From Antedon mediterranea (lineage: Eukaryota > Animalia > Echinodermata), in the NCBI RefSeq assembly GCF_964355755.1, contig NC_092672.1, positions 26,418,437 through 26,482,436 on the forward strand: a DNA stretch of 64,000 bases, in the 5' to 3' direction. Below are positions 39,801 to 63,309 of the stretch, in pieces; the stretch's first letter is position 1, and every line of letters starts with the position of its first letter. The notes under the pieces are model-generated. The model had not been told where the DNA came from. It was given only the letters and a program-made list of their open reading frames with translations, and did not search any database. The translations under genes and the position numbers were made by a program.

Positions 39801-42161
39801 AAATCAAGTAGCTCTTACAAAAATTCGGGACATGTGAGAGTAAAATTCATCGGGTTGCTTAAAATCTAATGGAATTTACACAAAAAAAAAATAATTTGTA
39901 AAATCTCTGTGTTGTTCTGGTTTAAGAATGACAAAAATGTAACATTCCTCATATAATTATACTTTTAATGTATGATGACGTAGGCATAACACTTTATAGT
40001 ACAGTTTGAAAATTGAATATCAATTAAGAGTAATCTCGATATTATTGACTTAAGCCTAAGTGAAATACTTTGCCTAGACGCCGAAGATGATAGAAAGTCG
40101 GCATAATAGTTATCTAACTACTAACTACTAGCTCCTGTTATAAAGTTGATACTTCCGATGCTTGAACTAATCTGAAAATTATAAAATTTTATTCTAATTT
40201 GAATATTTCCTCCACACTTTTACTAAACACGTGGGCCGGGTAATTTTAGGTTAATCCGCGTTCCTAATTCCTTCATGATTATCCAACCAATTAAGATCGT
40301 TGGATTATTCTTGAAGAAAGAGACTGTGGCTTTAAGATTATTGACGAAAATCTTCAACACAAAGAGAACAATTAAGATCAGGTTAATTGTGTATACATTC
40401 CACAGTCCTTGCTGCAATTCGATTATTGATTATTAACGACAAGATACAATTGACAAACTCGTCTGAATGCGGCGAATGATAGAAACAGCTAGTCGGATAT
40501 TTATGTTGGATCATAACAAACAGAAGTATGTTGTAATTATTGATTTGTTACAACGAATTTAGTAGCCTACGGTAATCTTAGTGCCTGAAACATGTAGTTT
40601 GGAGTATACTCCACGCTGAACAGTTCACTGTGCCTGCAGCTGGTAAAGTACTGTGAAATTTCCGCCTCATTATTTCCAAAGAAAAGCAGCACACGACCAT
40701 TTTGTAGTTGCTATATTACGATAATTGCTGTACTTTCTTGTCAAACCGCGCAGTTTGTGAGATTCGTTTCAATTTTCAAATTCTCAAGTTGTTAACAAAT
40801 AAAGTAAGTAGATTTTTTATTTATGTTTTAATGTTACCTATAACCGGTAGTAGTGTGATGATGAATACTTGGCAGTAGGCCTAAGATACCATTAATTTGG
40901 TTCGATAATCAGCCACAAATAAGACTTTCGTCTTAATAACCTATTCATAAAAAATATGCAGCTGCAATGGGCATGTAGAAACACATTTGCTAATGTTTGA
41001 AGAATACAATGTTTTACCTATTAATATCAACTGCAGGTGATCCATTTCAAGCTTTGTTGACCCTTAGAGAAATATAGTTAAACCCTTTATGAAAGTAAAA
41101 ATTGGGCTACTGTTGTGTCCATCTTAAACCATCACATAGTCCTATATTAGTAAAACCACGGGGTTAGGGTTAAGATGTATATCTTCCTGATAAAACTATT
41201 CCATGAATTACATGTTTGATACAAAATGACCGTTCATAAAAGATACTTTTCCATACAATGCAATGCGTTTCTATTTATATGGTGTTATAATTCTTTTGTT
41301 ACACATTTAGGCATATCCTCAATTATAATTTGGTAAAACTTCATTCTCATTGTTCTTTTTGCATCTTTGCGGTCAATGAATATGCAAGAGTTTTTCTTAT
41401 TTGTCTTCTATTCACATTAATCACAATTTCATCAAGAAAGAGGAGAGAAAATATATAGTTTCTGTCGTCTATTTGCCTACGTCAGCGTAGGGGAAATATT
41501 TAGGCCTAAAGCCCTAAACTACGGATTATATGCCACTGTTTTAGGAATTTTTCATAAACAGTATGCTTTACAATAACTATGAATAAAGGATATATCCTAC
41601 CGTAAACAATGTATACAACCACGTACGTTCCAATTTTCAGATTTAAACAAAATACATTTCTAGCTAACTTTCACTAAACAGTCATTGCTTCCACACACAA
41701 AAACATGTGGATTACCAGAACAAAGTCGCCGTTTTAGTTTTCAGGTACCCCAATTAAGTAATGCTAATCCGATTGTATAGTTTTAGTAAATACAAAGGGT
41801 AAGCCTGATGTAGTACAGATTTCTATAGCACATGTCTTTACAATTGATTTTATCTGATCATTGATCATATTAATAGAAGGTGTTTATTAGTTTAAAGAAT
41901 TTTTCTTGATCATGATTTTTACAGTTCATGTGAAAAAATAACCATGTAGGCCCCCTATATTGTAGGGAATATATTAACTTTTATCATCCCATATACTGTA
42001 TTTTGAACGACTGTTCCAGATTCACCAATACAGTATGTATACGGTTGTTGCGACAAACAAAAACATAAACATGCGTAAAAAAACAATATTTTGTTTTAAT
42101 ATTCGTTTTAAGGCTTCTAATTGTTTTTAATATTAATTTGTATAATATTGTGATGCGATAC

Positions 42162-42545
42162 TATGGGGCGCCATAAGCAGCAAAAGTGTGTAGCTGAAAA
42201 ATGTATGTGTACATTTAAAATGTGTGTGTGTGTAATTGCAAAATGTATTTGTAAACCTAAAAATGTGTGTGTATTTGTAAAATGCATGTTTGTAATTGTA
42301 AAACGTAGTTGTACACTTTTAAAATGTAGTTGTACACTTTTAAAATGTAGTTGTACACTTTTAAAATGTAGTTGTATACTTTAAAATGTAGTTGTACACT
42401 TTTAAAATGTAGTTGTAACAAGGAATGTATACTTGTAACGCTTGGTTAGAGATCTCTAATCAAGCGTGAAGACCATACCATTTCTCGAAAGGGGTTTATC
42501 GTCTAGAATGGCTAGATGACCGGCGGCCTGCCACCGATGGTATTT
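42162..42545 (+). repeat. Left TIR of the IS3EU-like element, with internal 21-bp array
   Basis: Reverse complement of ~60540-60930. About 5.5 copies of TGTAGTTGTACACTTTTAAAA. Confidence 0.92.
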
Positions 42546-44215
42546 TGTTATCTGTTTTTATTGACAATGTATGAAACACATTTGATTGACATGCGCATTA
42601 GTCAACGTTGTCGATTATTGGCGCGAATAACGATACGCAACCAACCGCTACCCACCCTCATGGTATTCAGCGAGTGAGACGAGCATGCACCACATGTTTG
42701 GATGGAATCTGGAATGCATACCCACAACTGTCAGTATCATCCTATTGTTGAGGTAGGCCTACAGTACAGTATGTAAAGTAGCCCATTCCTTAGAGCTGTA
42801 CTGTAAACCAGTATAGGCCTAGGCCTAGCCTAGCTAGGGAGGCATAATAAATAGTATCCTAGCCTAGCTAGGCCTACTGGTTCACAGCTACAGTAGCGCC
42901 TAGCTAGTCTACTAGGGCTAGGCCAAGGGGCATAGGCTTAGCCTAGGCCTACTGGGCCTAACTAGGCAGGCCGCATAAACTAGCTAAATGCCTACATCAC
43001 GCAGCTTAAATGCCTACACACAGAATAATTTCGCCAGTGTAGCATAGCAAAAAGCTATACTAGCCTAGGCCTATTAGTATTACAAAACAACCTTTTTGCT
43101 ACAGATTTTTAAAATTGTGTAGCAAAAAATACAATACAAAACTATGTTTCTCGACTTGAACATCAGTTTGATTAGCAATATTGCTAAACAAAATTTAAAA
43201 ATGAAATTTTCCCCTGCTACATCACGCAGAGCTTGCTGGCTATAGTAATTAGTAGACCGAATTTGCTGTTCAATTTAGCCAAAATTGTTTTATTCTTTAT
43301 TAATGACATTTCATTTGTACATTGATTGTTTATAAATGTAGGGTATCCATATATAGGCTATATAGGCTATATATATATAGGCCTAGGCCTATATAAAGTT
43401 ATTGTCATGCTTTTGTTATGTTATGCACAATTTGAAATTGGGCATGACAACGTTTCGCTATTTGAACAGACTAAAATAAATATGTTACTGTTGAGTGTCA
43501 GCGTTTACTGTACATGTCATCAATTTAAAGGATTTATTTGTTTATACATTTTATAAGGGTCAGACGTGAGCCTACTTATGAGGCCTACTTAAAGCCTAAA
43601 TCCAAGATTTGCTATTCATGATATAGTTAGTTAAAGGACAACTGTACCGAGGACCATATTTTAAAAACGTATTAGGGGTATACATATGATTTCAGAACCA
43701 TCGCGAAATCGAGGATATCGCCGCACGCGCTCGCCGTACAGCCGTCGCCGTAAATTGCTGTGACGTCACAGGTGCATCGCATAATCTACTTAATGAGTTT
43801 TCGCTGTTGTTACCATACAAAAGATAGGTACCGTCACTTCAATTGCTTATTTAACCTTTTAAATTACTTAAATTTGCCAAAATGTTTTCCTGGTATTTTG
43901 AAGAAACACTTCAATATCCAGATAGGCAAAACAAACAATAAAAAAATTCAACTTTTATATTTTTTACGATTTATTTAAAAAGTGTGTTTACTAGAAATGT
44001 TCGCGCTTTGCGAGACTTGTCTATGGGACCCGAAGAGTAGCTAGTAGAGAAACATGACGTATGACGTTCTGGAATCATTCAACCATATCGGACTCAAAAC
44101 TTTTTCTCTGCTAGCTAGCGATTTTTGGGCCGTGTGCGAGCTTCCTCCTCCTCGTGTGTGTGACGGTGGTGTGATCAACATTGTGTAGAGTAGTAGTAGA
44201 GAGAGGGAACTGAAA

Positions 44216-47200
44216 ATGCCGGCGTGTGTTGTTTCAAATTGTCGGGAATACGAAAAAGCCCGATTAGATGGAATACCCTTTCATACCTTTCCAAATGATA
44301 AGGCGTTGGCCAGAAGATGGTTAACTGTTATTAGAAACGCTAATTTGAATCCCGGCTGTAAGCCGTCGACATACAGAACTTTGCGAGTTTGTGGAAAGTA
44401 CTTCATGAAGTCAGATTACCTACCTGACCCAAAACACGATCTAGCTCCGCATCTTTACAAGCCAAAACACCGCCTGAAACCTGACGCAGTACCAAGTATA
44501 TTTGCATTTAACAAACCTAGTAGTACAACTATGAGAAGTGCATTTAAAAAAAGACAGGAGGCTGGTAATCAAGAATCGGTAAGAACAATGATGAATTTAC
44601 CACCAGAACAATAATATATTAATAATTAGGCCTAATATATCAAAGTAAAATATAGGCCTAATAAGTTTTTTTTTTCTTTTTATGTTTAGGCTAAGCCTAA
44701 AAAAAAATTAACAATTGACTGGGCCTACTACTCTGTACATTATTAAAATATTACATTTATGATATAGGCCTAGGGATTTTAGGCTATGCCTAGCCTATAA
44801 ATCCAAACAAGAAAAAATATAGCCTATGCTAGATAGTATTACTACTACTACTAGCTAGAGATAGGCCCTTTCTTAGTGCATTATTTTTTTTAAATGAAAA
44901 ATGCTATAATGATGATTACTACTAACTAGGCCTACTAACTACTAGCCATCATTTGGTGATTGAGAACAACAACAAATAACACTAACTATAGTTTAAAAAA
45001 ACAATTCTATTTTTTGTTACTGTGTAGAAATGGTATTAAAGAAAAATAAATATATTTAGGTTTTCACAGGCTCAGAATCATCGCATACATCACATGATGT
45101 CCAAGAAAAAAAATCAGTACATGGCAATGATGATGAGGTATGATTATTTATGGTTTATCTATCTTCACCAACTTGTGAATGCGTAGTGTATGTAATAATA
45201 TCAAATTCTGTAAACTATATAATATTATAATTTTACAGGACTTAAATGTAAGCTTTTCATCATCACATGGAAATGAGTCGATGGGATGGATACCAGAAGA
45301 GGACAGTTCTTCTCCCTCTGAAGAAGAAATAGAAGTAGTAGATGATAATGTTACAGGAAAAGTGATAGTCAATGTTGATAGTGTGCTTGAAATGTTTAAG
45401 CGATGCCAAGAATGCGGTCAGAAGATAATATCAACAAATGTGTTATACAGGGGAGCACAAATAATTGTACATTGGCAATGTACTGAATATCACTTTGGCA
45501 AATGGGAAAGCTGTCCAGATGTTCGTGGAATGGCAGAAATCAATTTACTTACAGCCTCTGCTATTTTGTACAGTGGAAACACATATCAAGCAATTAATAA
45601 TTTTGCTAAAATTCTTGATATGCATTTTTTATCATCATCAAGTTTTTATCAAATTCGAAAATGTTATTTGTTGCCAGTCATAAATGAAGCATATAAGGAA
45701 CAACAAGATGTGATGATTGCCGAACTCATTTTAAGAAGTTTGGATAATGAGACTATCTCAATTTTGGGGGACGCCCGGTCAGACTCGCCAGGGTATTCCG
45801 CAAAATATTCTACGTACTCTTTTATTGAAGAGAAAAGTGACAAAATTGTTGATGCTCGGCTGATACAAGTGACGGAATGTTCCAGCTCAGTAGCAATGGA
45901 AAAGGAAGGTTTCATCAGAAGTTTAGAGTTTTTGTTGGGTCATGGCATCAACATCAAAACAATCACAACTGACAGATCACCATCAATCAGAAAAGTTATG
46001 AAGGACGAATACTGGGAGATATCACATCAGCTTGATTGCTGGCATGTTTGTAAAGGTATGATTGATACAGTAAAATAATTTTCTAACAAACTAAAACCAA
46101 ATTAAATCCTTCATTTTTTTTACTCTCATCAGTATATAAATAAGCACCATATACATATTGTACAAATGAGCATTATATGAGTTTGCTCTAATCTATCTCA
46201 TCTCACACAGTGTAATTTCAATTGACACTTCTTCTAGTCTACTAGTGTAGCACCAGCGAGTACAGTATATACTGTAATCATGTTTGTAAAGTTCATAAAT
46301 TGTTTTACTAATACTATATTGTATATTTTATCAAATATTTCAGGCATTAAAAAGAAAGTCTTGGCAAGTGGTAAAAAGAAGGGAAATGAGCACCTATTAT
46401 TGTGGACCAAGAGCATAACAAACCATTTGTGGTTCTGTTGTGCAACTTGTAAAGGTGATGTCCAGGTATGACCACTAGTGAATTTTTTTTTCAATCGACA
46501 GGGGTGAAGAGGAAAAGCAAAAGTAATGAAACTCTCATCTTGTGATGTGCTTAACAAGCCCTGTCAATATACTGTAAACAAAACAAAAATATATATTTAT
46601 GTACATCATCATATTGATAATTGATATATAAAATACTCAAAATTAAAAAATCAGTTCTGCTTTATACTGTGTTTATTATTAATAAGTACTATATAATTAA
46701 TACAGAAATAAAAATAAAGTTGTGTCCAATAAAAAATATTGCAGTACTATATAAACTGCTCTTATACTAGTATAAAAGAAAAAAGAGCACCATCATCATC
46801 ATTCTCTAAATTGAGCTTTACACTATTTTTTTACTAATGTTTAGGTACTCAAAAACAGGTGGAAATCAATTTTAAATCACGTGGTAAATGTTCACAGATG
46901 GGAGGAAGATGGGATTGAGAATACCTGTGCACACAGTGCCCTAACAGAAGAAGAAGCAGAAAGCAAGATATGGCTAGAATATGATTCGCCAGCCTATGAT
47001 GCTTTGAAAAAAATTGTACTGGATAAAAGATTAGATAATGATCTTGGTCAACTTGGAGAATTTAAGCATACTGGTGGGTGTGAAATGTTTTTTGTGTAGA
47101 CAATAAGAATTAAACGTTAGTGTAAAACCCATTTTACTTACTCACTGCTCAATTCTTCAATTCAGGTACCTTAGAGTCCTATCATGCCTCGTACACCAAG

Positions 47201-47713
47201 TTTGCCCCAAAACGAATTCACTTTCATTATGGTTCTATGCAAGGCAGGACTCAGCTAGCAGTTATAGATCATAATGCTAATGTTGGCAGGAAACAGGCAC
47301 AAACAATTGCAGGTAATACTTATAATGCATGTAATAAAATAATACGACACTTTAAGTTAATATACAACATTTTATTATATTCTCTGTTCACCCATGTCTA
47401 AACTGTCTAGTCCAGCTACATAATAGGCCTATTAAAAATGATTTGTTTTTCTGAATTTAATTGTAGGTGATCTTCGATACAAAATGGTTTGCCCAAAAAA
47501 ATTTATGAAGCTAAAAAATATGATTACGTTGTTGATCTGGTTGAGAAGACGCTACAGAGACGAATGGACCCAGGTATAAGGTACAAATATACAGAATCTG
47601 CAGTGCCTCTTCCAGAATTACCAAAAAACATCTCAAAGCAGGAACAACCTTCTAAAGATTTATTAATAAATGAATATTGTCAAAGAACCGAGCAAATTAT
47701 GGATAATCAGTAG
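44216..47713 (+). CDS. Kolobok THAP-DDE transposase (7 exons, probably damaged)
   Basis: Exons 44216-44578, 45060-45137, 45239-46055, 46344-46465, 46845-47073, 47166-47312, 47467-47713. THAP (CVVSNC, FHTFP, RRW, LKPDAVPSIF), GDARSDSPGYSAKY, TTDR, HQLDCWH, HTGTLESYH...APKR. Apparent frameshift near 47495. Confidence 0.88.
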
Positions 47714-47792
47714 ATGATTATGATGGTGATGATTTAAATACTGTTGTTATACAAAGTTTATTTTTCAGTTTAATCGAACAAATTATGCATCA

Positions 47793-48759
47793 TCAGTAGC
47801 AGGCCAAGAAAAACCTTTGTATGTTCCATCAGGTGAAGGAAACTTTTCTCTAATTTTCTTGACCAAACAAGCTGGCAATACCATTCTGTTCTTGTAGCCT
47901 AGTTTTTCACCTTGTAGAATCCATTGTAGTACAACTCTGTAAGCTACAAGGCGGTATTGTCTGATAATTTAAAAAAATGAATGACTTTAGCTAAGTCTGT
48001 TAAAAATAAAAAGTGCCATGTTTTCTATATTTTGTTTTACTCACTGCTTGTTGATATCTAGTATTCTATATAGTAATTGGTTATTAGAGTGACTTTTGAA
48101 AACATGGTCATGCAAAACAGATTTAGTGGTCAAATGTATTTTTAAAAACAAAACATATTCTTGTGCTTATAGAGTAGTTCTCTTGAGTTTAACACAATGG
48201 AACTAGCGGCAAAATGAATGTATTATGTAGAAAGAATAAAAAAAATAAATAAAGGAAGAAAGATATCTTGAATAAAAAACCAAAAGCCTTACTCATTATT
48301 TAGTTGGCCATGTAGGCCCCTTGGTTTCGGAAATTGTTTCCAGTTGTGTCGATGACTTCGAAAAAATGTTGTCAAAACACTTGTATTTAAGTGTGCTTCA
48401 AGATCACAATGAGATGTAATGCACCGTAATAATAAATCGTCATCTTTTTCCATTGGAGTTGTAGTAGGCCTCTCTCTCTCTAACAAAGACAATGTTTGTT
48501 GAACTTCATTGCAACATACACATTCGTCTTCCGTTGCCATTGGTGTACAAAAACCACATGTACACCAAAAACTGTCATTCAGTCTACTTACTAAAGCAGT
48601 TGGCAGGGGTGCAACTGCACTATTATTCTTCTCCTTTCTTCTGCGCTCTATCTCGGTTGGTGAGTATTGTGGTTCAAATAAATATGGTTTTGGAACAGAA
48701 TAAAAAATATCGTCGTCACTTCCATACTCTTCTTCTTCTGTTTCATGCACTTCAGCCAT
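47793..48759 (-). CDS. KolX accessory protein, P2X7 C-terminal ballast/ZCD-like Cys-rich domain
   Basis: Exons 48759-48293 and 47960-47793: PYLFEP, WCTCGFC, ECVCC, CITSH, YRLVAYR..QW, LGYKNRMVLPACLVKKIREKFPSPDGTYKGF. Confidence 0.85.
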
Positions 48760-50273
48760 GTTTTATCGTTATATGTGTCTATGATGAAATTAAATGAGAG
48801 TATTAAATTGGGCTATATTAAATACCGATTTGATATGCACTGCCTAGTAGGCCCTGGGTCTACCTAGTAGTATTCAATCCATCTGCCTAACCCTTCCTCT
48901 AGCTGGGCACAATATGATTATGAGTGAGGATTTCGAGTAAAATATTATTAATATTATTATAATAAGTTCATGAATTTTTAGGCGTTCATAAACGGCGGCC
49001 ATGCCCCACCCACCATGCCATGGCCAAAGGCCCAAAATAATCAGACCCACTCTAAGCTAGTAGTAGAGTACTACTAGGCCTAGGCTGGTACTAGGTAGGC
49101 ATAGTACTATACTAGGCTCTTGCGCATATCAATTAGTAGCCTATTTATTATAGGCCTAGCCTAGTAGAATAGGCTTACCCAGACTCCTACTAGGACTAGG
49201 CTAGGCATATATATAAAAGAAAACAGCGGCAGCAGAGCCAGAGCAGAGGGGACCTAGCTAGGCCTAGGCCTAGGGTTAGGCCTAGTTTTGTTTTCCAAAA
49301 TTGAAATTACGAGACCCTGACACAAAAACAAACATAATCTAATTTTTTTTTTAAACTTACGTGATAAGCCCACGATCAATGCTAAAAAACTTGTCTGGAA
49401 AAATTACAACTATCTCACACACAGAGTTTACCACATCACCACACGTCACATACACACCACCACCACACAGCAGCAGCAGAGAAAAAGTTTTGAGTCCGAT
49501 ATGGTTGAATGATTCCAGAACGTCATACGTCATGTTTCTACTAGCTACTCTTCGGGTCCCATAGACAAGTCTCGCAAAGCGCGAACATTTCTAGTAAACA
49601 CACTTTTTAAATAAATCGTAAAAAATATAAAAGTTGAATTGTTTTATTGTTTGTTTTGTCTATCTGGATATTGAAGTGTTTCTTCAAAATACCAGGAAAA
49701 CATTTTGGCAAATTTAAGTAATTTAAAAGGTTAAATAAGCAATTAAAGTGACGGTACCTATCTATTGTATGGTAACAACAGCGAAAACTCATTAAGTAGA
49801 TTATGCGATGCACCTGTGACGTCACAGCAATTTACGGCGACGGCTGTACGGCGAGCGCGTGCGGCGATATCCTCGATTTCGCGATGGTTCTGAAATCATA
49901 TGTATACCCCTAATACGTTTTTAAAATATGGTCCTCGGTACAGTTGTCCTTTAACACATTTGGAGTTGAAACAGCAGTAGGGCTGGTGTTAGGCTAGCCA
50001 AACCTGCAGGGTATGGCCTAGCCTAGTAGTAGCCCAGCTAGCCCTACTAGACCTGGGTAAAACAATCAATATTTTACTACTAAAATAACAAAATGCGATA
50101 TTCTATTCTTCTTGTAATGTAGAATAATCCTTTAAAATATATCTAAACAAAATATGGGCTTCACCACTAGTACTGTAGTAAGATAGTTAATTCAGTACTG
50201 TATCTGTATTGATGAATTTAATTATTAATAATAATTTGTTTTGTTTCAGATAACTACTGTAAAAAATAAAGCC

Positions 50274-53200
50274 ATGGCATCGCTTTCAACAACTGATATA
50301 GATAATTTAACCAAATCCCTACTATCAAATGACAATTTTTTAACAATCATTCAGAATGTAACTCCAAATGCTCAACCTCAAACACATAGAAATACTACAA
50401 GAAGACCACACCAAGATCTAAATAGTGAAATGAATAGTTTATTTACCACACCAAGATCAAGAAATACCACCAGAAGAAGAACACAAGATAATTCAAGGTC
50501 TCGTTCATGCTCTAATTCTAGGCAAAACCAAAATTACTTCTACTTAAAAGAAGTCATTTTATTGGATACATCATAAAGCGATCAAATACCCAGGGCAAAT
50601 TACTATGGTAAACTAGATGAAAAAGGTTAGTTATTTATTATGATTATTATCCTAATCTACTATGTATTTCAGTTTTTTATTCAATACTAAAAAAAAATAT
50701 TGTTTCTTACAAATTTTTGTTTCAGAAAAGAAATCTTTTCTTTTTTGGCACATTCATTTAAAAAAATGTATTTATAGTCTAAACATTTTAGGTAATGAAC
50801 TTTTTTAAACAAAATTCCTTCCTAAAAGTCAATTGGGATTCATGAATAAATATATAAAAAAAAGTATAGAATAGTGTCTTGAGTAAAAAATCAATTTATT
50901 TTTTTTTCAATCTTTTGAAAGTTGATAAACATTTTCAAGGTTCAACATGGCCTATTTATTTTTGTCTGCATGAGAAATCATATTTACTGATTATGTATCA
51001 TTAAATTTGCTTTTAACACTACAGGTCATGTTTATCATCATGTTGAACTAGAACAATGCATGACAGCAAAAGAAGTTTACAAAAAATTGGAAAATATGTT
51101 TTCAGATATATTGGAAATTGAAAGTGATCCAATTAAGTAAGTTCTTTTGATTTATTTAAATTTAAAATAAAGTACTGTAACTGTAGTGAAAACTAAAATG
51201 TTAAATTTAGTTTACAAGCAATGTTGGATTTGCAAAAAAATATTTTGAATAAGTACATATTTTTGCTCAGCGAAAGTGGGATTCTGATTCTTTATTTTTG
51301 GTTACAAGCATGACTGATTCATGGAAACAACATTCCAGCTTCCTTTTCATCTTCAAAAGATTAAACAAAATGCCTTGCAAAATCTTAACTTTGAGCTTTC
51401 AATATAATGTGATAGTACCAACATAAGAAGTTTGTTAACCTGTGTGCAATGATATGATGTACAGTTAAGATCAGAATAATTTTTGAAGCATTTACATACT
51501 CACTGTTGACTAATAATAATAACAGGATTTTTATAGCGCACATACCACTCAAGAGTGCTCAAGGCGCATAGTAGTTGATTTCTTATTGCAAGACTAGAAC
51601 AATTTTCCATTTCTACAAGCAATCATTGGTCATTACAATATACATACCAGTACATATTCTGAATGTTTTTAATAAATAACTATAATAATAAATGAACTGT
51701 ACCTTGATATTTTGGTGCTGAGCATTCTAAGTCAGAAAAAAAAGAATGCCTTGTGTACAGCTTTCACCTCCCTTCAGTAAATGTTTTAAGTATAACATTT
51801 TGTCATCTACATTTTATAAATTATATCTTTTAGGTTTGAGTTTATGATTGGAATGGGTTCACGATTAACTAAACTACGTTTAACTGATGATCAAGAAAGG
51901 AATGCACAGCTTTTGCATCGTTTATATGGAAACAAGAGGGTGTACTTGTTGCCTTCCCGAGATATTGTTAGTACAACTAACAGTAACATTAGTGACTATT
52001 TATTACCTCTTAGTCCTACATCTGATGCAAAAGAAAGTGATACTGAAGTAAGATACATAACATAACATTTTTGTTTATAACCGGTTTTGTCTAAATCTTT
52101 TCAGTGCAATTGTAAATGAATTAATTGTATTGTGGTATTATGATATGAGATTTTTTTTTTTTTTCAAGATTCAAAAGTTGTATTATAAATCTGAATTGTC
52201 AATTCAATTCAAATAAAGATTTATTTCTTCCAAGTAAAATTAAAAAAACATTTCTTTTTATTTTCAAATTATTTGTGAAATTATAAAAGAATAAAAATAT
52301 AAGAAATGTCTAAAAAATGTTAATGAAAGCGGCAAAAAAAGCTAGAAATATTTATAATGTATGGAACATACTGTATGCAAACAAGTTATTTGCAGTTATC
52401 AGTATATGGTATCTACAATCTGTTAGAGTAATATACAATAGTATTACATGTACAACATGAATGATGAATGTATTTATTATTTAATTTTATTATTCATATG
52501 TAGGTTGTAGACTCAATACAGTGTGTAAACTGTTACAAAATGATTTCCAGTACTGAAAAACACCACTGTAACGGTGGAAGTTCACAGCCTAGAGGTGCAA
52601 ATGAGTGTTCAAGGCAAACTTTAGATTTGTCTAATAAGCAGAGTGTGAGATCATATATATATGAAATGTTCCCAAACCAGTCGACTAAGAGTATTGAAGA
52701 CGCACTTAACTTGGCTGACGTTAATGATGCCATCGACCTTCTCACAAACAACATCTCGAAGGAGGAATGCATAAAGAGCTTTAAAAAAAAGTGTTTGGAA
52801 GAAACAGAACATCTTCAAATTAGAAGGAATGAACTGTGGCGTGATGGAGTCCTGTTCTACAAAAAAAGTTTGGCCGAAAAATCAATGTTAACAAAAAAAC
52901 TGTGCATTGAGTTCACAGGAGAAGAGGGCGTAGATGGTGGGGCCCTTAGTATAGATTTTTTTGACACATTTTTCAAAGAGTCCATTAATCGTTTGTTTGA
53001 CAAGACTGACGTTGGTTTTATTCCAAATCGTTCAGGAAACAATCTAGTTCCCTTTAAGATTCTGGGGTTGGCAATTTCGCATAGTTTGTTACATGGTGGG
53101 CCACCATTTCCAAATCTACCTATGTGGGCCTATTTATATATTGCAGGAAAACCAGAAGAGGAAATAGATTCTATATTGTCAGGGCATCAACCCAAAGAAA

Positions 53201-53862
53201 TAATCCCATTAAATGCAGCAACTGCCAATTTGTTGGCTTTTTTGAATGGATTGGATAATTGTAAGAGCACAGAAGAGATAGATAACCTTATGGATGAATC
53301 AGCAGAGGGGCCAGCCTATGAGCAGTTAATCAATTCAAGTCAATGGCCAGTTGAATGTAAAATTTCAATTGAAAATGTTGAAACATTAAAAAGTATGCTA
53401 ATCAGAGATGAAGTAGTTGGCAAACGAGAGAAGCAACTACGAAGCATAAGAGATGGCCTTCAGTATACAGAACTTATGCCATTCATTGAAAGATGCGATG
53501 AAATGTGTTCTATTTTCCTAATGAAACATGTGGATATGACACCCGAGTTGATGGTAGACATAGTAGAGTGGGATACTCTGGAGAATGTTCATAAAGAGAA
53601 AGAGTGGTTACGGGAAGCAATTAATGAGATGTCATGCCAAGAATTAACATGTATGCTAAAATTTTGTACCAGCTTTACACAGTTCGACAATATTAATAAG
53701 CCAAGAATATACCTGGAAAAGAAAGATGACAGGATGTGGCCAGAATCATCTGTTTGTACGTCGACTTTATTTTTACCTTTAGGGTATACCAACAAAGATG
53801 AGTTCAAATCTTGCATAAAAAGTGCTTTTAAATATGGGCATGAAGGCTTTGGAAGATTATAA
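50274..53862 (+). CDS. Transposon-borne CUE + HECT-domain E3 ubiquitin ligase-like gene (premature stop in first coding exon)
   Basis: Exons 50274-50625, 51025-51136, 51834-52047, 52504-53862 in continuous frame except TAA at 50574-50576. HECT motifs IEFTGEEGVDGGAL, SLLHGGP, MLKFCT, WPESSVC...LFLP and terminal GFGRL. CUE-like YEMFP...DAIDLL. Confidence 0.85.
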
Positions 53863-55739
53863 CAGAATTATAGCATTGTTTTCTCAAACCAAAAATGTTG
53901 TTGATAGCTGATCTTATTCAATTGTTATGTTTCTTTGAATGCTTGAGCATTAAGGCTTTAGACAATTTAGTTTTTACTGTAGCAATAATAGCTTTAAAAT
54001 GTTTAGTAATTAAGTGCTAACATGTTTAATACAATAATGACATTCAGTTTTGTTATTGTTAATATGTTTTTATTGTTTTAATCAAGCTTAATTCAAAGTC
54101 TTAATTCCAATTTAAAAAAAAAATATTTTGCAATTAGTGGCTACATTTTTTTAAACAATTTTTGTTTAATAGATTTGTTGGGAAACACAATCATAAAGTT
54201 AATTTTATCACATACAGTGGTAGTTATATTTTGAACACCAGTTTTAACATAGTTACATGTATGTTTTAATGATGGAGGGTTTTATTCTTAAATCACATTT
54301 AAATAATTATATAATATTGAGAGTTTTTTTCCCTAAAAATCATATTATGAATTGCTCATTTATGTCAGACTTCAATACTTGATTTTTATGTATAGAAATT
54401 GATTTTCTACTGCATCTTAAATGTATAAAGATAATTTCATGTTAAATATCTTCAATGCTTGTTACTTTCATTCATTTAATACCATGTACCACATTTTTTT
54501 TCCTGGTACTTTTATACTTGAAATGCATATAAACTATACTTTGGTAATGTTTGGGTTACTTATAAACCAAAGGAGGCATTTCTATTGAAAAAAAAAATTT
54601 GGTTTAGAATAAAAGAACAGCCTCTATAATAATCTATTTCTTTGCACTTATGGGTATGTTAAATAATTCCACAGAAATTTTACTTAACAACATGCTTCTT
54701 GTTATTAGATTAAAAACTGATTTTATAACGTATTTATAGTATGGTACCTTCATGGAGTTTGGCATACTTTTTAAAGTTTGTGATTGTATTTGAAACAATT
54801 AAACACTGCATTAAAAGTATTTTTGAGTCTCTTATTTTGTTGTTTGTTTGAACTTATTGAAAGTATACCACTGCAAAAACAAGGTCACAAAGGTTAATTT
54901 TGGAAGTTGATGCGACAAATAATATTAGTATACTATACGAATCATGTACGTGTGTAATTATATTTTTAGGTGATCATTTAGAATAAAATGATCATCTATT
55001 ATTATTGTATGAAATCTTTATTGTTATTTTTTTTCTTTTTATTGTTTCTGTACACTATTTTGTGTAACAATTATCTCAAAAAGTTCACTCATCTGTGACG
55101 TAATTTATACGCAATTTTGTGAAATCACATTATCGATCATATCTCTATATTACTTGTAATCACATGTCAATAAAATTTACTATACATAAACTGCATGTCA
55201 AGGGTAAAAAGAATAGCAAATAAAATAAAAATTAATAGTGAAATCGCGCGTTAAAAATTTAAAAAGCTCAAGATTACATTCACCAAATTTGAGTCTATTC
55301 CGACTTTAAATAACGCTATACGAGCAGGTTAAAAAATGACAAAATGCGCACATTAATTGCACAAAAGTGTCAAAAACGGTAAAAAATAAGGCCTTATAAT
55401 ATATAAATATAACTCTTCAGAATGGACGCTTACCCCCATTTTTTTAAACTGATTATGGAAGCCAATGAGTTGGAGTTATGAATGCATCATGTACATATTA
55501 GACGTACAAAATTATATGATGTCATCATTTGGCCACAAGAATAACAAAAATTGGATTTTTTTCGTTTCATCTTAGACAATCATATTGAACAGGGGGCATC
55601 TCGCTTATCTGTGATCGATTTTCTTTAAATTTTTAATATTCTACCTCAACCAATTATGTTACTCATGAGTTGCCAACATTTCCATTTAGATGATTTCATC
55701 ATGTCTAAAAATTTAAATAACGCTGATTACGTAATTTAA

Positions 55740-55930
55740 TAATAATAATATAATAATACCAGATTTATATAGCGCCCTTTTCATGAGTAATCATGCTCAA
55801 AGGCGCTTTACAAGCATTATTACCCCAGTATTTTTTGGGATCAAACACGTATGGAAACATACTCCCATAATGCAGCCGGTAACCAGCGCAGTTGTGTCTA
55901 AGAGTATCTTGCCTACGGATACAAACAATG
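55740..55930 (-). mobile_element. Deleted, truncated copy of the 1103-1403 SINE inside the IS3EU-like element
   Basis: Near-identical 3' half and (ATT)n tail. The core is deleted and the head is missing. Confidence 0.85.
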
Positions 55931-57884
55931 CTAAATAAGTCAGTAAAACCACAATTAGCAAAATTTATTTTCATTTATCCACTATAAACTTATAATGCAA
56001 TGCAATTTCACCTACAATGGATATTTGAATACCTTGCAGCTCTTTTGAAATAAGTTGACCTTGATTTTTATAACTTATTATGAGAGCTTGTAAAATGTAG
56101 ATATGAATTTATTTAAAAATTAGGTCTATCGGATGTTGTAACGTTATCATATGGCCAGTTGAAGTTAAAAAGTAGTTTTTTTATCTCTTTCGTCAAAGTT
56201 ATACAAATTTTAAAGAGCGTGCACCACGCTTCTACGTGACAAATTTTCTTCCAATTGTTATATTTTATTGCTCAATTCATTATCTTTCGATATTGTTATC
56301 CACAAGTTTTTTTTGATAATGTTATCAATGCCAAAAAATTAGAACATGATGTGTGTCCGTAATTTCACCAATGCTACACGGTATATAGATATACAGTATA
56401 TACTGTACTTAATGTATATGGCATATAATAGACACAACTCAGCACTATATAAGCGTATAATAGGAAGGCATACATCAACATGTTCCGATCGTATGTTAAC
56501 ATACGTGCATGTTTAAAAAATATTAATGTCAATAAAATTATAAAAATGATCAACAATAATTCGTCAAAGTTAAATTAATTTCTAGTTTTTTTTACATCTA
56601 TATTGAAAATTTGTTTAGAAGCAATAAAAATCAATTTGTGGGTAATAGGGGCAGACGCAGGGGTGTTGCCTGGGCAATTCCTTCTTTCTGCAAATTTCAA
56701 TATTTTTTTCTGGAGTGTTGTTTAGGCAACACTGTTTATACAGTTTATAGTGGATAAATGAAAATAAATTTTGCTAATTGTGGTTTTACTGACTTATTTA
56801 GCATTTATTTCAAAATAATACAATTACTGTAAACGTTTTGCTCAATATATTTATAGCAGCAGCCTCTTATTTTTTGTTTAGCTTTTTAAAATTATGATTT
56901 GATAATAAATAATTTGTACTCATTATAATTGCTAATTAATTAATTTCCGGCCATCTAGTGGTGTAATTAAAAACAATTTGCATCGCTCCTCTATGGGCCA
57001 AATATGTGGTTTTGCGGCTGGACTCTTCTTGGCCAACACCCTTAAAATAGTCCTCTGCGACCACCCCTGTTAAAATTGCATGTTGCAAATCTAGCCAAAA
57101 TACAATTGATTTTAAATAGCTTGGATCAGCTCTGTATTTGTTTTGCATTGGGAAATCTGTAACATTCACAACAAATATAGTTTTTACTATAAAAAAAATC
57201 ATGTCATTCACATTTTGTTAATATAAATTTATTTATGGATAAGTTTCTAGCCACAGTACAATTGAGTTTAGATGAGCTCAGCTCTACCTTTTGTTTGAAG
57301 GCTCTGTGTTCACTGTACGTTATTAATATAGCTATCATAAAAATTAGAGTTTTTACACCAAAAAACTGTTAAAAATCATGTTACTGTATTTATTTAAATA
57401 AACACCGGAGGATTGTTATGAGTGCAAAGCACTATCCAATCGTATGCTACACCTCAAACAATATAAATTATAATATAAAATAAAACTAAACAATAGATTA
57501 AAGCAACAACAAAAAATTTATTTACAGTTCAAATGTTTCATGTGTACAGAAAAAAGCTGCTTAATATAACATTGGAGAGCTGTCGCAAATATGTTGAAAA
57601 TAATAAGAATGTTCTTTTGGAATATCTTGCCATACACAGAGACAATTATTATAATAAATATTAGAAAAACTAACTCTCTCGTCCATAGAAAGTAAATTTA
57701 AATTACCCATTGCACAAAGTTGTATTTGTGCTACAGTAGTATTATATTTTTTCAAAAAAGAAAACCAGACTCTAGTGGTCCTACGGAAACCGGTGAAAAG
57801 TCTCATTAGAATCAATGTTTGTTAATTTCTAGGGTTGTTTACTATCACTGATCAGAGATAGTTACTAAATGGTTGTTTAGGGGT

Positions 57885-59729
57885 TTACATCATGCCTTCC
57901 ACTATATGAACTAAATTGACATAAATGTCTATACACTGGTCAACATCTGCTTTATTAGCACCTAGTGCATATGATTTAATAAATTGTTCTTGGTTGTTGG
58001 TTAATGGCAATTGTATATATGGAACAACAATCTGTTCATTATTGTTGTCATCAACAGCTTGTGGCCCATCTTCATCAATTCCATAATTGTGAATTAGATC
58101 TTGATATTCTTCAGGATTGGTAAATGCATAAGCATTTAATCCCATATGCCAAAGTTGATTCGGTGAAAGATTATGTTCGCTACTCATGGGATGGTCATTC
58201 CAATTGCCTTCCATCTCTCTTAATGAATCATTAATGAGACTTAAAAATACAGAATGAAGGCAATACATGTAAATATGAATCTGGTTTAAGGGATCAAGAA
58301 TTCCCAAATTTTCCATTTAGTTAAATATACCTTGAAATTGTTTAACAACAGTTTGTTTGACATCCAGCCACAGCCTTTCAATTCTTTGATTGTGAACTGA
58401 TGAACCTGTTATATGGCTGCCACGATTTAAGCCTCTATTGCTTAACATAAAGCGAGCGACCAATACATTCTCGCCTCCTTTATCAGATCTGACTCGTGAT
58501 GGTAAACCATGCTGTCCAACAGCTTCTTGAAATAGCTGAAGAACACTCTCTGCTTTGTTATTTGTGCAACATCTACAGTAAGATAAACAATCTTGCGTGA
58601 ATATCCATCAATGCCTCCTAATATGACAAAGTTCCAGCGAATTAACTTATGATGGCCATCGATGTGCCTGTAAAACAAAACAAATTGGCTACTCTCTTGA
58701 ATCATGCATAATAAACTTTTTGTACTGACATACATTGTTAATGTTACATGTGTATATTTTCTTATCAATTATATGTACAGTACCTCAACAATAATTCATG
58801 CAAATAAGTATTATGGGCAACTTATTATTCACATCTTAAAAAAGTTCATACTTTTTTTAAATCTGCTAAATATACTGTATTTATTATTGTTAGTAAAAAC
58901 ATCTACCGTATACTGTAATCCTTACCATAAACTATTTGGACTTGCAACATTGTAAACTCTTCTTATAACAGATCTGGTTCGCCTTAATGATCTATTGATT
59001 GGGTCAACCTCCATTATAGCATCCCGAATTAGACTTCTCTGAACATGTATACGCCTTCTTCTTAATCCACCAATAATTAATGTTTCTCCAGCATCAGGCA
59101 ATAAAATCAATATTCTTCTTACTTCATTTAAAAGCTGATCTCTTGAAATATTTGAATAGTAGTTTCTAGTAGAGTTAGGCTGGGAAACGGGCAAACCATA
59201 TAATCTTCTTCTTCTTCGAAGTGTATCAACAGAAATCCCTAATTGATGTGCAACAATTTTCCAACTATGAAATATTTCAAATAGTTCTTCAATATTCTCT
59301 TTATTAACTATAATCCTTGGTCGCCCATTAGATGTTTGTTCAGTTTGATGCGATGCAAACCACCTATGATGATCATGATTTCCGTTTATTCTTTCATTTC
59401 ATTTCATTTTTTCATTTCTTTATTCGACAACAAGCGGTCCAGGGATTGCGACAGCAACAGAGCACCATAACACATTTGTGTCCGCAATCCCTTTCATCAT
59501 ATGAGGCAAAAATAGAGTTTAATTCAGTAGAAAGTATAACAAATTGTTCAATGGTATCTAGAGGAACATCACTTTCTTGTAACCTTCTTAAAAAATTATT
59601 AAATAAAATGTTTAAATTCTCAATCCTAAGATGCCAGTTTTCAAGCACATTAATATTGTCAGATATAAGACCTCTTTGCGCCTGGCATAAAGTTCCTGGT
59701 AATTCTCTGATAATTTGCAGTAAATCCAT
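57885..59729 (-). pseudogene. IS3EU-like DDE/integrase-core transposase, disrupted
   Basis: GRPR + HTH (IVAHQLGISVDTLRRR), RRVYNVASPNSLW|[11 protein letters not shown] (intron ~58925-58668), [41 protein letters not shown]...SPNQLW. Frameshift at ~58575, stop at 58317-58319, frame breaks in the N-terminal part. Confidence 0.9.
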
Positions 59730-60539
59730 GGTAAATGCCTGTTCTGAAATAAAAATATGTACAAATTAATTCTTAAAATTTGATTTGAAATAAGAATTAT
59801 TATTAGCTAGCTAGCCTAGGGCCTTTAGTAGGCCTACTAGTACTACTACTACGGCCGAGTCTATGTATGGTCTTCAGGGAGGCTATATTTATTATAAGCT
59901 AGTACTAGCCTACTAGGGCCTATAGGCCTAGAAGGCTAGTAGTAGAAGGACTAGGCCTAGGGCCTAGTACTATAGTAGTCTAGGCCTGCCTACTATAGCT
60001 AACTAGGCCTAGCTAGTAAAGACCTAGCCTATAGGCCTGCTAGGTAGGCAAGAGGTAGGCCTAGCCTAGCAGTTAGTGGGCATAAAGCCTAGCTAGGTCT
60101 TTGGTTAGTTTAGTAGGCTCCTTGCTTGAGAGCTAGCCTATATAGGCCTAGCCCTATTTAGGCCCAGGGCTTAGGAAGTCCTACTGGCTAGTAGGCTAAG
60201 AGGCCTAGGCCTAGCCTAGGCTAGGTCTAGGCCCCTACTTCTACTAAACTACACAGGCTAGCCTAGGTAGGCCTAACTAGTATAGCCTCTAGTAGTAGTA
60301 GGCTAGCTGTTTCATTCTTTTCTTTTAATAACGGAATTGGGTCTTTATTTATAGGCGCGAGGCCTAGGCTAAATATTGTATTGTAATACATACCTACCAC
60401 TCTTAGTGACTTAGTATAGTCCGGCCTAGTTATTATATAATTTAGTAGACGACCGACAACAGTGTTTCGCCGTCGCTTTTCAATATAATAATCAAAACTC
60501 CCAAAACGCCAATGCTATAACGATAAAAAGGAAATAAAT

Positions 60540-60930
60540 ATACCATCGGCGGCCGGCCGCCGGACAGATAGCCCTTTTCCATGGTATACCCCTCTCGAGA
60601 AATGGTATGGTCTTCACGCTTGATTAGAGATCTCTAACCAAGCGTTACAAGTATACATTCCTTGTTACAACTACATTTTAAAAGTGTACAACTACATTTT
60701 AAAGTGTACAACTACATTTTAAAAGTGTACAACTACGTTTTACAATTACAAACATGCATTTTACAAATACAAACACATTTTTAGGTTTACAAATACATTT
60801 TGCAATTACACACACACACATTTCAAATGTACACATACATTTTTCACCTAGAACACACATACACACACATTTTTTAGCTACACATTTGTGTTTAACACAA
60901 ATATACTTTTGCTGCTTATGGCGCCCCATA
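60540..60930 (-). repeat. Right TIR of the IS3EU-like element
   Basis: Matches the left TIR, with about 3.5 copies of the 21-mer and extra subterminal sequence. Confidence 0.92.
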
Positions 60931-60967
60931 CGATACGATACTGATACATTTTTTTTTTCAGGAGGCC

Positions 60968-63309
60968 ATGATGAATTTAACGAATAACGACACAGCCACT
61001 TCGGCAATCGGTGCTGCTTCACTTATTCTCATCATTATAATCGCAATCATCGGTAATATCCTCCTTCTGGTGTCGATTAAAAATGTTCGCCGATCGCTAC
61101 CAGGTGTGCTGGTGTTGGTGTTGTCCTTATGTGATCTTTCATTTTCTACACTAGTTTTACCCATATCAGCTGTTGCGTTTTTAATGGATTGGAACATGGA
61201 AGACACGCCAAGTGCATGTGGTTTCCAGGGTTCGATGTCATTCGCGCTCAAGTTTACTTCAACATTTACCGTCTGTCTTATTTCTTTAGAACGTTACTTT
61301 TACGTTAAACCATCTGAAATAGTTTTAAAGAAACAATGTAGGCCTATTGGAAGAAGTGTTATTGCGTGTGGTTCGTGTTTATTGATCTCTCTTTTACTTG
61401 GATCTATGCCATTGATTGGTGGAATCGGAATGAAAACGTTTGAAGACTCGTTGAGTTATTGTCACTTTGATATTACGCCAGATGATACAATTTCGACAAT
61501 ATTCTCTATCATTGTATTATCAATTGCTTACATAATGCTTCAAATATCAATGTTCAGTTTGGTCTCTGTATTTTGTAATTGGAATTCATATGTCAAAGTT
61601 CAACTCAGGTCAAATAGTCACATGAACCAAAATGGAACGCATGGTGAAAGTGTTGTTCAAACTTCTTTTAAACCGAACTCATCTACAGATTTGAACCAGC
61701 GACTCTCGTTCACTAGGATGCTTCTTGTTATTTGTGTTCTTCATTGGTGCTGTCATATGCCTTTCTTGGTGAGAAATAACTTAAGGTTTATTAAAGGAGT
61801 TTAACCGAGTAAATCTTTGTTAAGTCATTCTTTTTGTTTATTGTTGTATTTTAACAAAATTGTTCCATTAATTCCGTAATATTACAAAAAAACTCGTTCA
61901 ATTGACATCGTAATCTGCAACATTACTAAGTACCAATCTAGTTGGACTTTAATTCTGTAAAATAGCATCATGGATACTGTTTAATTAAAATGCTTTTTAA
62001 ATTATCTTTGTAACGAAATCATATCGTTTCTCTTTTACAGTTATTGATAGCAGTGACACTTATGTCAGGAAGCTTTTCTCAAACTGCAGACTTTGTTACG
62101 GTTTACATAATGGCTCTTCAACCGGCTTTAACCCCCATAGCCATATTTTCATTATATCCGCCCTATTTTCGAAACATGAAGTCTCAATTATTTCGAAAAT
62201 CAAATAGTAAGATGATAGAAATTATAAGTAGGCCTAATGTACTGATTATTCATACTTATAATGTTTAGCTTTTACTAATACAATTTTGCTGTACTATTGC
62301 TTTTGATTATATTATAGAATTGTCACCACTTTTGTTTTCACAGATATGCCGACGTTTAACCACCAACCTTCTGATGAGTCTTCTCGATACCGCGATGCAT
62401 CACAATTCGGGTCTTACCAACGGTAGGACCACGAAGCATTTTTTAAAAATATTGATATTTATTTAGATAAACATAAAATAGTGTTGATCAACCTAACTAA
62501 TCCCATCCACTAACCAATTGTTTGTTTGTTTGTTTTATCTTTATACTGGGTGACCTCTTCAGTCAAAGACTGATCTCCCAGAGGGCCCAGTTGGTGATCA
62601 GTGGCTGTGATGTAGGCCTACTAATACACCGGGGTAACCCCCCTACTCGTCTCGAAAGATGTACTAGGTTCTTTAAAGTGCACACGAGCAAGTTGTGTAC
62701 ACTGGACCTACGGTTTATAGTCCTTATCCGAGAAGACTCGTTCTACCACCAGAACCATGGAGTGAGTGAGCCTCGAACCCCTGCCGATGTTATGGCTACG
62801 TGATTACGGTTCCACTGTCTTAACCGCTCGGCCACTCACTCGTGTAACAATATCGTCCAACTATAGATATCGTCTTTTTTAATGTTTTAGTTAATGATTT
62901 ATTTTTAACTGGTCTATTTATTTTTTATTCTAGAAACGTCAGCGACATTCAAATTAGTTTGGCTGATACATCCAAAGAATCATTTTCCAATCATAACCTA
63001 TCTTATGATGACGTCATCAGAAGGGATAGTTCTTACGGAACGGGTTTAACTTACTCAAACGATGACGTAATCGGAGTAAACGGTTCTTCTCGCGCGATGA
63101 GTGACGTTAAGATCGGACTCCGACGGAATGAACCAAATGGTGACGGTATGATCGGAATCTTCAATGATGGTTATTATGATTCAGATTCTGTATCATGCAG
63201 TACGTGCTCTAGGAGTGACTTCAGTTATTGTGACGACACAGAAGGTAGGACACGTTGTAGATCTTCGTTTAAGCTTGGTTCCCACTTATACACAACGCAA
63301 GTGAGTTAG
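60968..63309 (+). CDS. Class A (rhodopsin-like) GPCR, possibly prostanoid-receptor-like
   Basis: Exons 60968-61768, 62041-62206, 62344-62422, 62934-63300/63309. TM1 GN, TM2 LSLCDL, TM3 SLERY, TM6 CHMPFL with an intron at the end of TM6 (as in prostanoid receptors). The last exon may splice on at GTGAGT 63301. Confidence 0.85.
62519..62843 (-). mobile_element. Full-length tRNA-derived SINE family B in a GPCR intron
   Basis: A box TGGCCGAGCGG, B box GGTTCGAGGC, (AAAC)n tail. Confidence 0.9.

Follow-up and report, generated by a model that had tools for sequence, protein, structure and literature searches.

The locus described here raises two questions: whether a gene for a HECT-type ubiquitin ligase found between the ends of a large DNA transposon belongs to that transposon or to its host, and what such an enzyme might do there. 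It lies in a 64,000-nucleotide stretch of the echinoderm Antedon mediterranea (contig NC_092672.1, positions 26,418,437 to 26,482,436 of the forward strand; the whole stretch is called the window, and all coordinates are counted from its first letter). The element is a decayed copy of an IS3EU/GingerRoot cut-and-paste DNA transposon, with its transposase gene facing the HECT gene. The HECT ligase is a long-standing second gene of this IS3EU subgroup, and we consider it very probably a resident gene of the lineage, kept by selection; because many related elements from other organisms carry the same two genes, the ligase probably serves the transposon as a functional helper, rather than being a host gene captured on a single occasion. 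A sequence-only reading of the window had already assigned the gene to the element, and we qualify that claim: the window copy is broken, most sister copies lack the catalytic part, and the order of the two genes is not fixed.

An IS3EU element with two convergent genes

A perfect 6-bp target-site duplication (TSD), CGATAC at 42156..42161 and again at 60931..60936, encloses an element of 18,769 bp (42162-60930) with TATGG..CCATA termini, which starts with TATGGGGCGCC and ends with GGCGCCCCATA. Its left terminal inverted repeat (TIR; 42162..42561, plus strand) opens with TATGG and contains 21-bp tandem repeats and the palindrome AGAGATCTCT, the right TIR (60523..60930, minus strand) closes with CCATA, and the two align over about 400 bp; within the 64-kb window the terminal 25 nucleotides (nt) occur at two sites only, the two ends. 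Without the Kolobok-like transposon nested in it the element measures 12,449 bp, in agreement with the roughly 12.4 kb, the long TIRs and the perfect 6-bp TSD of the sequence-only reading. IS3EU/GingerRoot transposons are defined by TA..TA ends and 6-bp TSDs (PMC10045372), and the element has both, with TA..TA (TAY..RTA) termini carrying TIRs.

The transposase gene lies on the minus strand and has one intron. Its first exon (58926..59729) encodes N-terminal helices and a helix-turn-helix (HTH) and carries a frameshift near 59400-59440, and its second (57885..58667) encodes a DD34E core; the Pfam family rva_4 matches two pieces of the gene (E values of 5e-34 and 6e-12). Upstream of the core, the Pfam scan for an HHCC motif gave no Integrase_H2C2 match and weak HTH matches only. 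By eye, the core is about 66% identical to the IS3EU-4_DR row in the supplement of PMC10045372 (71/107 positions), and it lies near the IS3EU-4_DR, IS3EU-1_CVi and IS3EU-1_SK rows there, unlike the Ginger2 rows. The IS3EU identity proposed earlier is thus supported by ends, TSD and core. The described IS3EU/GingerRoot transposons (Repbase; Kojima and Bao 2023, PMC10045372; Cerbin et al. 2019, PMC6839031) share the TA..TA ends, the 6-bp TSD, an integrase-like DDE core without HHCC and an animal distribution; what sets the present element apart is a whole spliced HECT gene as a recurring second gene. These transposons are described as structurally and functionally little studied (PMC11934779).

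The HECT gene runs on the plus strand, convergent with the transposase gene, and is predicted to have four coding exons with GT..AG junctions that encode 678 amino acids, in keeping with the multi-exon structure first read from the letters. Exon 1 (50274..50625) contains the start of a ubiquitin-like domain at 50535 and, in the window copy, a TAA stop at 50574-50576; the domain continues through exon 2 (51025..51136) and ends in exon 3 (51834..52047). Exon 4 (52504..53862) encodes a C2HC-like finger (52522), CUE-like helices (52645-52749) and the HECT domain (52810-53859) with its catalytic Cys codon at 53755, giving the order ubiquitin-like domain, finger, helices, HECT. Pfam recognizes the HECT domain in the plus-strand gene (E 3e-10; 40.7 bits, above the cut-off of 23.9), whereas the Pfam matches to CUE and C2HC belong to relatives and not to the window protein. 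The crinoid protein P0001 (Anneissia japonica) is identical at 386 of the 678 residues, and the named relatives are annotated "uncharacterized protein." No PHD or RING match was found in P0001 or eight relatives; CUE or C2HC matches were found there instead.

Structure prediction is consistent with this assignment. The model of exon 4 (predicted local distance difference test [pLDDT], 89) has a bilobed HECT fold, and all PDB matches listed by Foldseek are HECT ligases (best E 4e-13). Cys644 is in line with the catalytic SHTC motif of E6AP and EGFGRL with KGFGML, so that the Phe near the terminus is present. The model of the N-terminal domain of P0001 (pLDDT 85) has a beta-grasp, ubiquitin-like fold, and a domain of this kind also occurs in seven of the loci with a convergent HECT gene described below. 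A comparison with solved structures gave no significant match for this domain, the best E being 6e-3 and the best Z, 5.7, being common to many unrelated ubiquitin-like domains; a RAWUL or USP7-like label was considered and not adopted, as the matches are nonsignificant. Residues 95-225 of P0001 also have a like fold in models of chordate C2H2 zinc-finger and Neuralized-HECT proteins (TM score 0.66-0.72), and the presence of the domain in these predicted structures is possibly a trace of domestication. In a separate observation, intron 2 of the HECT gene was found to hold a 139-nt high-copy repeat (51485-51625), which is skipped in sister copies (runs X2-X4, below).

Recurrence, constraint and decay

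If the ligase belongs to the element, it should be met again beside related transposases. Metagenome contigs were scanned with an alignment of 42 transposase proteins, and the best 80 of 568 confirmed stretches, which form 66 clusters at 80% DNA identity, were analyzed; the loci were found by the transposase alone, HECT playing no part in the search. The pairing count is based on the 35 loci whose contig continues for 2 kb or more on the downstream side of the transposase, the other 45, with less than 2 kb, being left out. By our own profile (8 seeds from these loci plus 4 other proteins; threshold E<1e-3; best reversed-sequence decoy, E 0.37), a convergent HECT gene was found in 24 of these 35 loci (20/27 clusters), and a match upstream in 4 of the 19 loci with at least 2 kb on that side. 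With Pfam alone, 10 of 70 long neighboring open reading frames (ORFs) exceeded the HECT cut-off and 3 more fell under it, all downstream and on the opposite strand. Complete elements with TATGG..CCATA ends, a 6-bp TSD and both genes are L053 (AAGAGA) and L069 (GATAGA); L065 has the same ends with the TSD missing, and in L036, L076 and L080 inverted repeats bound the contigs with both genes between them. No TIR/TSD pair was found around L019, L031, L054, L055, L056, L059, L060 or L077. Among viral contigs, none of 21 pattern matches held a relative of the transposase. In Hydractinia, a related HECT protein is present in nine accessions of at least 90% identity on at least six different chromosome-sized contigs, the distribution that one would predict for a gene carried by an element active not long ago.

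At two loci other genes were seen near the transposase. In L007 (2665-3741, minus strand), a CbbX/EccA-type AAA+ ATPase (PDB E 3e-45) is encoded facing the transposase, in the place taken by HECT elsewhere, and in L019 (14165-15070, minus strand), a Ulp1-like protease ORF (Peptidase_C48, under the cut-off) lies beyond pieces of HECT; the latter may be a third ubiquitin- or SUMO-related gene or a separate element.

The same organism offers a second view of the family, in contigs of four public runs (X1-X4) that represent at most two samples. In X2-X4 the element as a whole is covered at about 9-13 times the depth of the flanks, and its transposase and HECT exon 1 at about 8-13 times, rough figures and not true copy numbers, which point to a multicopy family in this organism. 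Flank contigs exit at the TSD without entering the TIR (X2 record 9, X3 record 24 and X4 record 32), which fits an empty allele. These data, with the perfect TSD and the pair in other TSD-bounded elements, speak against a one-off capture, or a host gene that came by chance to lie between two TIRs; that the nearest protein, P0001, is a single record would agree with such an origin, which we nevertheless regard as highly improbable. The HECT gene therefore stays with the element, as the earlier reading had it: TIR- and TSD-bounded copies elsewhere (L053 and L069) carry the pair, and the family appears to be multicopy.

In X1, the exon-4 acceptor (52504) is the exact starting point of one contig, with a depth of 58.9 against 14.2 in the intron, and another contig spans a Kolobok exon from edge to edge, which is RNA-like; the RNA nature of X1 is our guess, as none of the four runs is recorded as RNA. 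The contigs hint that a spliced HECT mRNA exists in X1.

Constraint on the ligase is seen between diverged copies. Of the sequences that cover the column, all 32 loci and 40 of 41 proteins retain the catalytic Cys, a count that is partly circular, as the profile scores the motif and eight of its seeds come from the same loci. In four diverged HECT pairs, nonsynonymous divergence (dN) is 0.38-0.65 and synonymous sites are saturated; saturated synonymous divergence together with open frames and an invariant Cys requires selection over long times. The two genes also appear to share much of their history. Distances between transposases and between HECT proteins are correlated (Mantel rho 0.28, p 0.003; n=22, comprising the window and 21 loci, one per cluster and each with at least 200 HECT profile columns, so that 14 of 35 paired loci were dropped), and the IQ-TREE trees of the two proteins have the same broad groups. 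The congruence that the sequence-only reading had proposed to examine thus holds in outline, although not throughout: approximately unbiased (AU) tests reject it for L004 (p 0.005 and 1e-5) and L060 (p 0.01), not for L052, the tested groups having been named after the trees were seen and long branches being present. The rejections indicate that ligases swap between transposase lineages, and we infer from these sequence comparisons that the pair has mostly been inherited together, with occasional swaps.

Besides the circularity of the Cys count and the AU rejections, several observations weigh against a resident gene that serves its own element. Our scan patterns pick a single IS3EU subgroup; within it, L075 and the complete element L043 (TSD CTCCTT) are without a HECT match, and in L021, L028 and L031 (GC 0.25-0.27) as well as L032, L054 and L077 the transposase has HECT or its ubiquitin-like domain on its upstream side, a second arrangement of the genes. 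In the window copy neither gene is intact, a decay that the sequence-only reading did not mention: the HECT frame is stopped by the TAA at codon 101, and the transposase, apart from its frameshift, carries a 5-nt insertion near 58574, a TAA at 58317-19 and a 6-nt insertion near 58264. All four runs have C (a Gln codon) at position 50574 and lack the 5-nt insertion; since neither lesion is present in any run, both are private to the window copy. Contigs of X2-X4, for their part, lack 7 nt at 59115 in the transposase. Deletions in HECT from 52044 to 53441 (1396 nt) and from 53685 to 53879 (193 nt) are common in all four runs, the smaller one taking out the Cys codon, and only about 26-40% of the depth in X2-X4 comes from a whole exon 4; the ligase is therefore not needed in cis. 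Ligase-dead derivatives that retain the transposase region seem to outnumber whole copies by about 2:1, so that HECT is complete in no more than roughly a third of the copies. Finally, linkage alone would give matching trees, so shared history does not identify the substrate.

Such decay would be in keeping with an ancient passenger: the HECT gene would have been acquired in a single distant event and would either give the element no help or be kept for a benefit to the host. The catalytic part is missing from most copies in the sampled organism, 11 of the 35 loci have no convergent HECT gene, and GingerRoots do acquire fragments of genes (PMC6839031). The captures reported there are, however, fragments 79-98% identical to host genes and accompanied by loss of the transposase, unlike the whole, deeply diverged gene found here, and the long selection required by its saturated synonymous sites, open frames and invariant Cys fits a passenger poorly. 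We consider this explanation improbable.

Possible roles of the ligase

Our tentative preference, which is guided by analogy, is that the ligase works in trans as a helper and that its main target would be the element's own transposase complex. In such a scheme, as may be expected from the family, the DD34E transposase would bind the repeat-rich TIRs, excise the element and insert it with a 6-bp stagger. The N-terminal ubiquitin-like domain of the ligase might choose the substrate, the zinc finger and CUE-like helices might bind ubiquitin, and the HECT Cys would build chains on transposase remaining at the new junctions. The host proteasome and p97 could then clear the tagged transposase and the gaps be repaired, or transposase levels might simply be capped in this way; the ligase made by a small number of whole copies would then serve the larger number that lack it. 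Transpososomes are cleared by protein turnover in other systems, MuA by ClpX and retroviral integrase by the proteasome. The transposase is favored as substrate because of this analogy and because an alpha-kinase is encoded opposite the transposase in fungal IS3EU elements.

Those fungal elements, the TET+ IS3EU (PMC12730594), are a close parallel: they have the same TAYGG..CCRTA ends, a 6-bp TSD and a gene for a protein-modifying enzyme opposite the transposase, the partner there being an alpha-kinase plus TET/JBP in place of the HECT ligase found here. They bear as well on a close rival to the transposase as target, namely, that the same resident gene acts as a counterdefense enzyme and ubiquitinates host proteins of silencing or chromatin, which would keep element copies expressed or make targets accessible. 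The TET/JBP dioxygenases, beside the opposite-facing alpha-kinase, have been proposed to be antisilencing factors (PMC12730594), the role would suit a ligase that works in trans and can be exchanged between lineages of transposase, and the weak structural neighbors of the N-terminal domain include the USP7 UBL and the RING1B RAWUL, which bind chromatin regulators. These neighbors are nonsignificant, though, and a self target would explain at least equally well why ligase and transposase have broadly codiverged in sources far apart. We regard counterdefense as possible, if somewhat doubtful.

The relation of these ligases to known animal HECT proteins also deserves attention. The class IV HECT proteins G2E3, GL-Metazoa and GL-Bikonta (Grau-Bove et al. 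2013, PMC3673628) likewise have a highly divergent HECT domain and are described as host genes; transposons go unmentioned in the accessible parts of two HECT surveys (PMC3673628 and PMC2837046). Vertebrate G2E3 has a nonfunctional HECT domain and PHD/RING-like fingers, whereas the window protein keeps the Cys and has a ubiquitin-like domain with C2HC-like and CUE-like parts, a comparison made by description only. A broader proposal would be that one IS3EU branch is an ancient two-component transposon whose HECT subunit dismantles the element's transpososome, as a self-encoded eukaryotic equivalent of ClpX acting on MuA, and is at the same time the source of the fast-evolving "G2E3-like" class IV animal HECT genes, the dead HECT domain of vertebrate G2E3 being a domesticated remnant; taken as a whole, we think this unlikely.

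A conserved, catalytically intact E3 ligase as the second gene of IS3EU elements would mean that a transposon encodes its own access to the ubiquitin system. Many divergent, multicopy animal HECT annotations, such as the nine near-identical Hydractinia accessions, may be transposon genes, and transposon-borne HECT genes would affect the counts on which expansions of the HECT family are based. The words "HECT" and "ubiquitin" are absent from the main texts of PMC10045372, PMC12730594, PMC6839031 and PMC11934779, and we found no publication on a HECT-IS3EU pairing in a search that left Repbase entries and most supplements outside; the _1p/_2p protein names of Repbase suggest that two-protein IS3EU families are already curated there.

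The nested Kolobok and the surroundings

The Kolobok-like transposon inside the element spans 43635-49950, or 43631..49954 with its TTAA duplications (plus strand), and has AG..CT ends and TIRs of about 480 bp; it carries exons for a THAP domain and a Mutator-like transposase on the plus strand and a second ORF on the minus strand. It agrees with the Kolobok superfamily, as described in PMC6004289, in its TTAA target, RR/AG ends, THAP domain and DDE-type transposase, and it is an independent and later arrival in the IS3EU element. A contig joint in X4 from 43631 to 49952 skips exactly the Kolobok (6320 nt), and the insertion is absent from sister copies. Its family is likewise multicopy (about 4-9 times flank depth in X2-X4) and seems to be spliced and expressed in X1; the second ORF has a weak match to P2RX7_C (E 0.04).

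Other features within the element are repeats. High-copy repeats are inserted between the two genes (54970..56830), including a piece resembling a miniature inverted-repeat transposable element at 55927-56805 with inverted ends of about 70 bp. CTAG/GGCC-rich low-complexity tracts lie at 42750-43000, 49000-49300 and 59750-60300; in the IS3EU element as in the Kolobok, they are found inward of the ends and upstream of the genes. Rfam gave no match across 41500-62000.

To the right of the element (60931-61804) is an exon of a rhodopsin-family G protein-coupled receptor (GPCR) with its ATG at 60968 (Pfam 7tm_1, E 2e-18). The element ends 24 nt upstream of an AG acceptor at 60960-61, just ahead of a CTGAT branch-point-like motif, and likely sits in a 5' intron of the GPCR gene with the splice signals intact. 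Scattered exons in the first half of the window (1-32000) resemble in their motifs what is presumably a VPS13D-like host gene, and remnants of LINE-like reverse transcriptases lie at 18300-21950 and 33200-33940.

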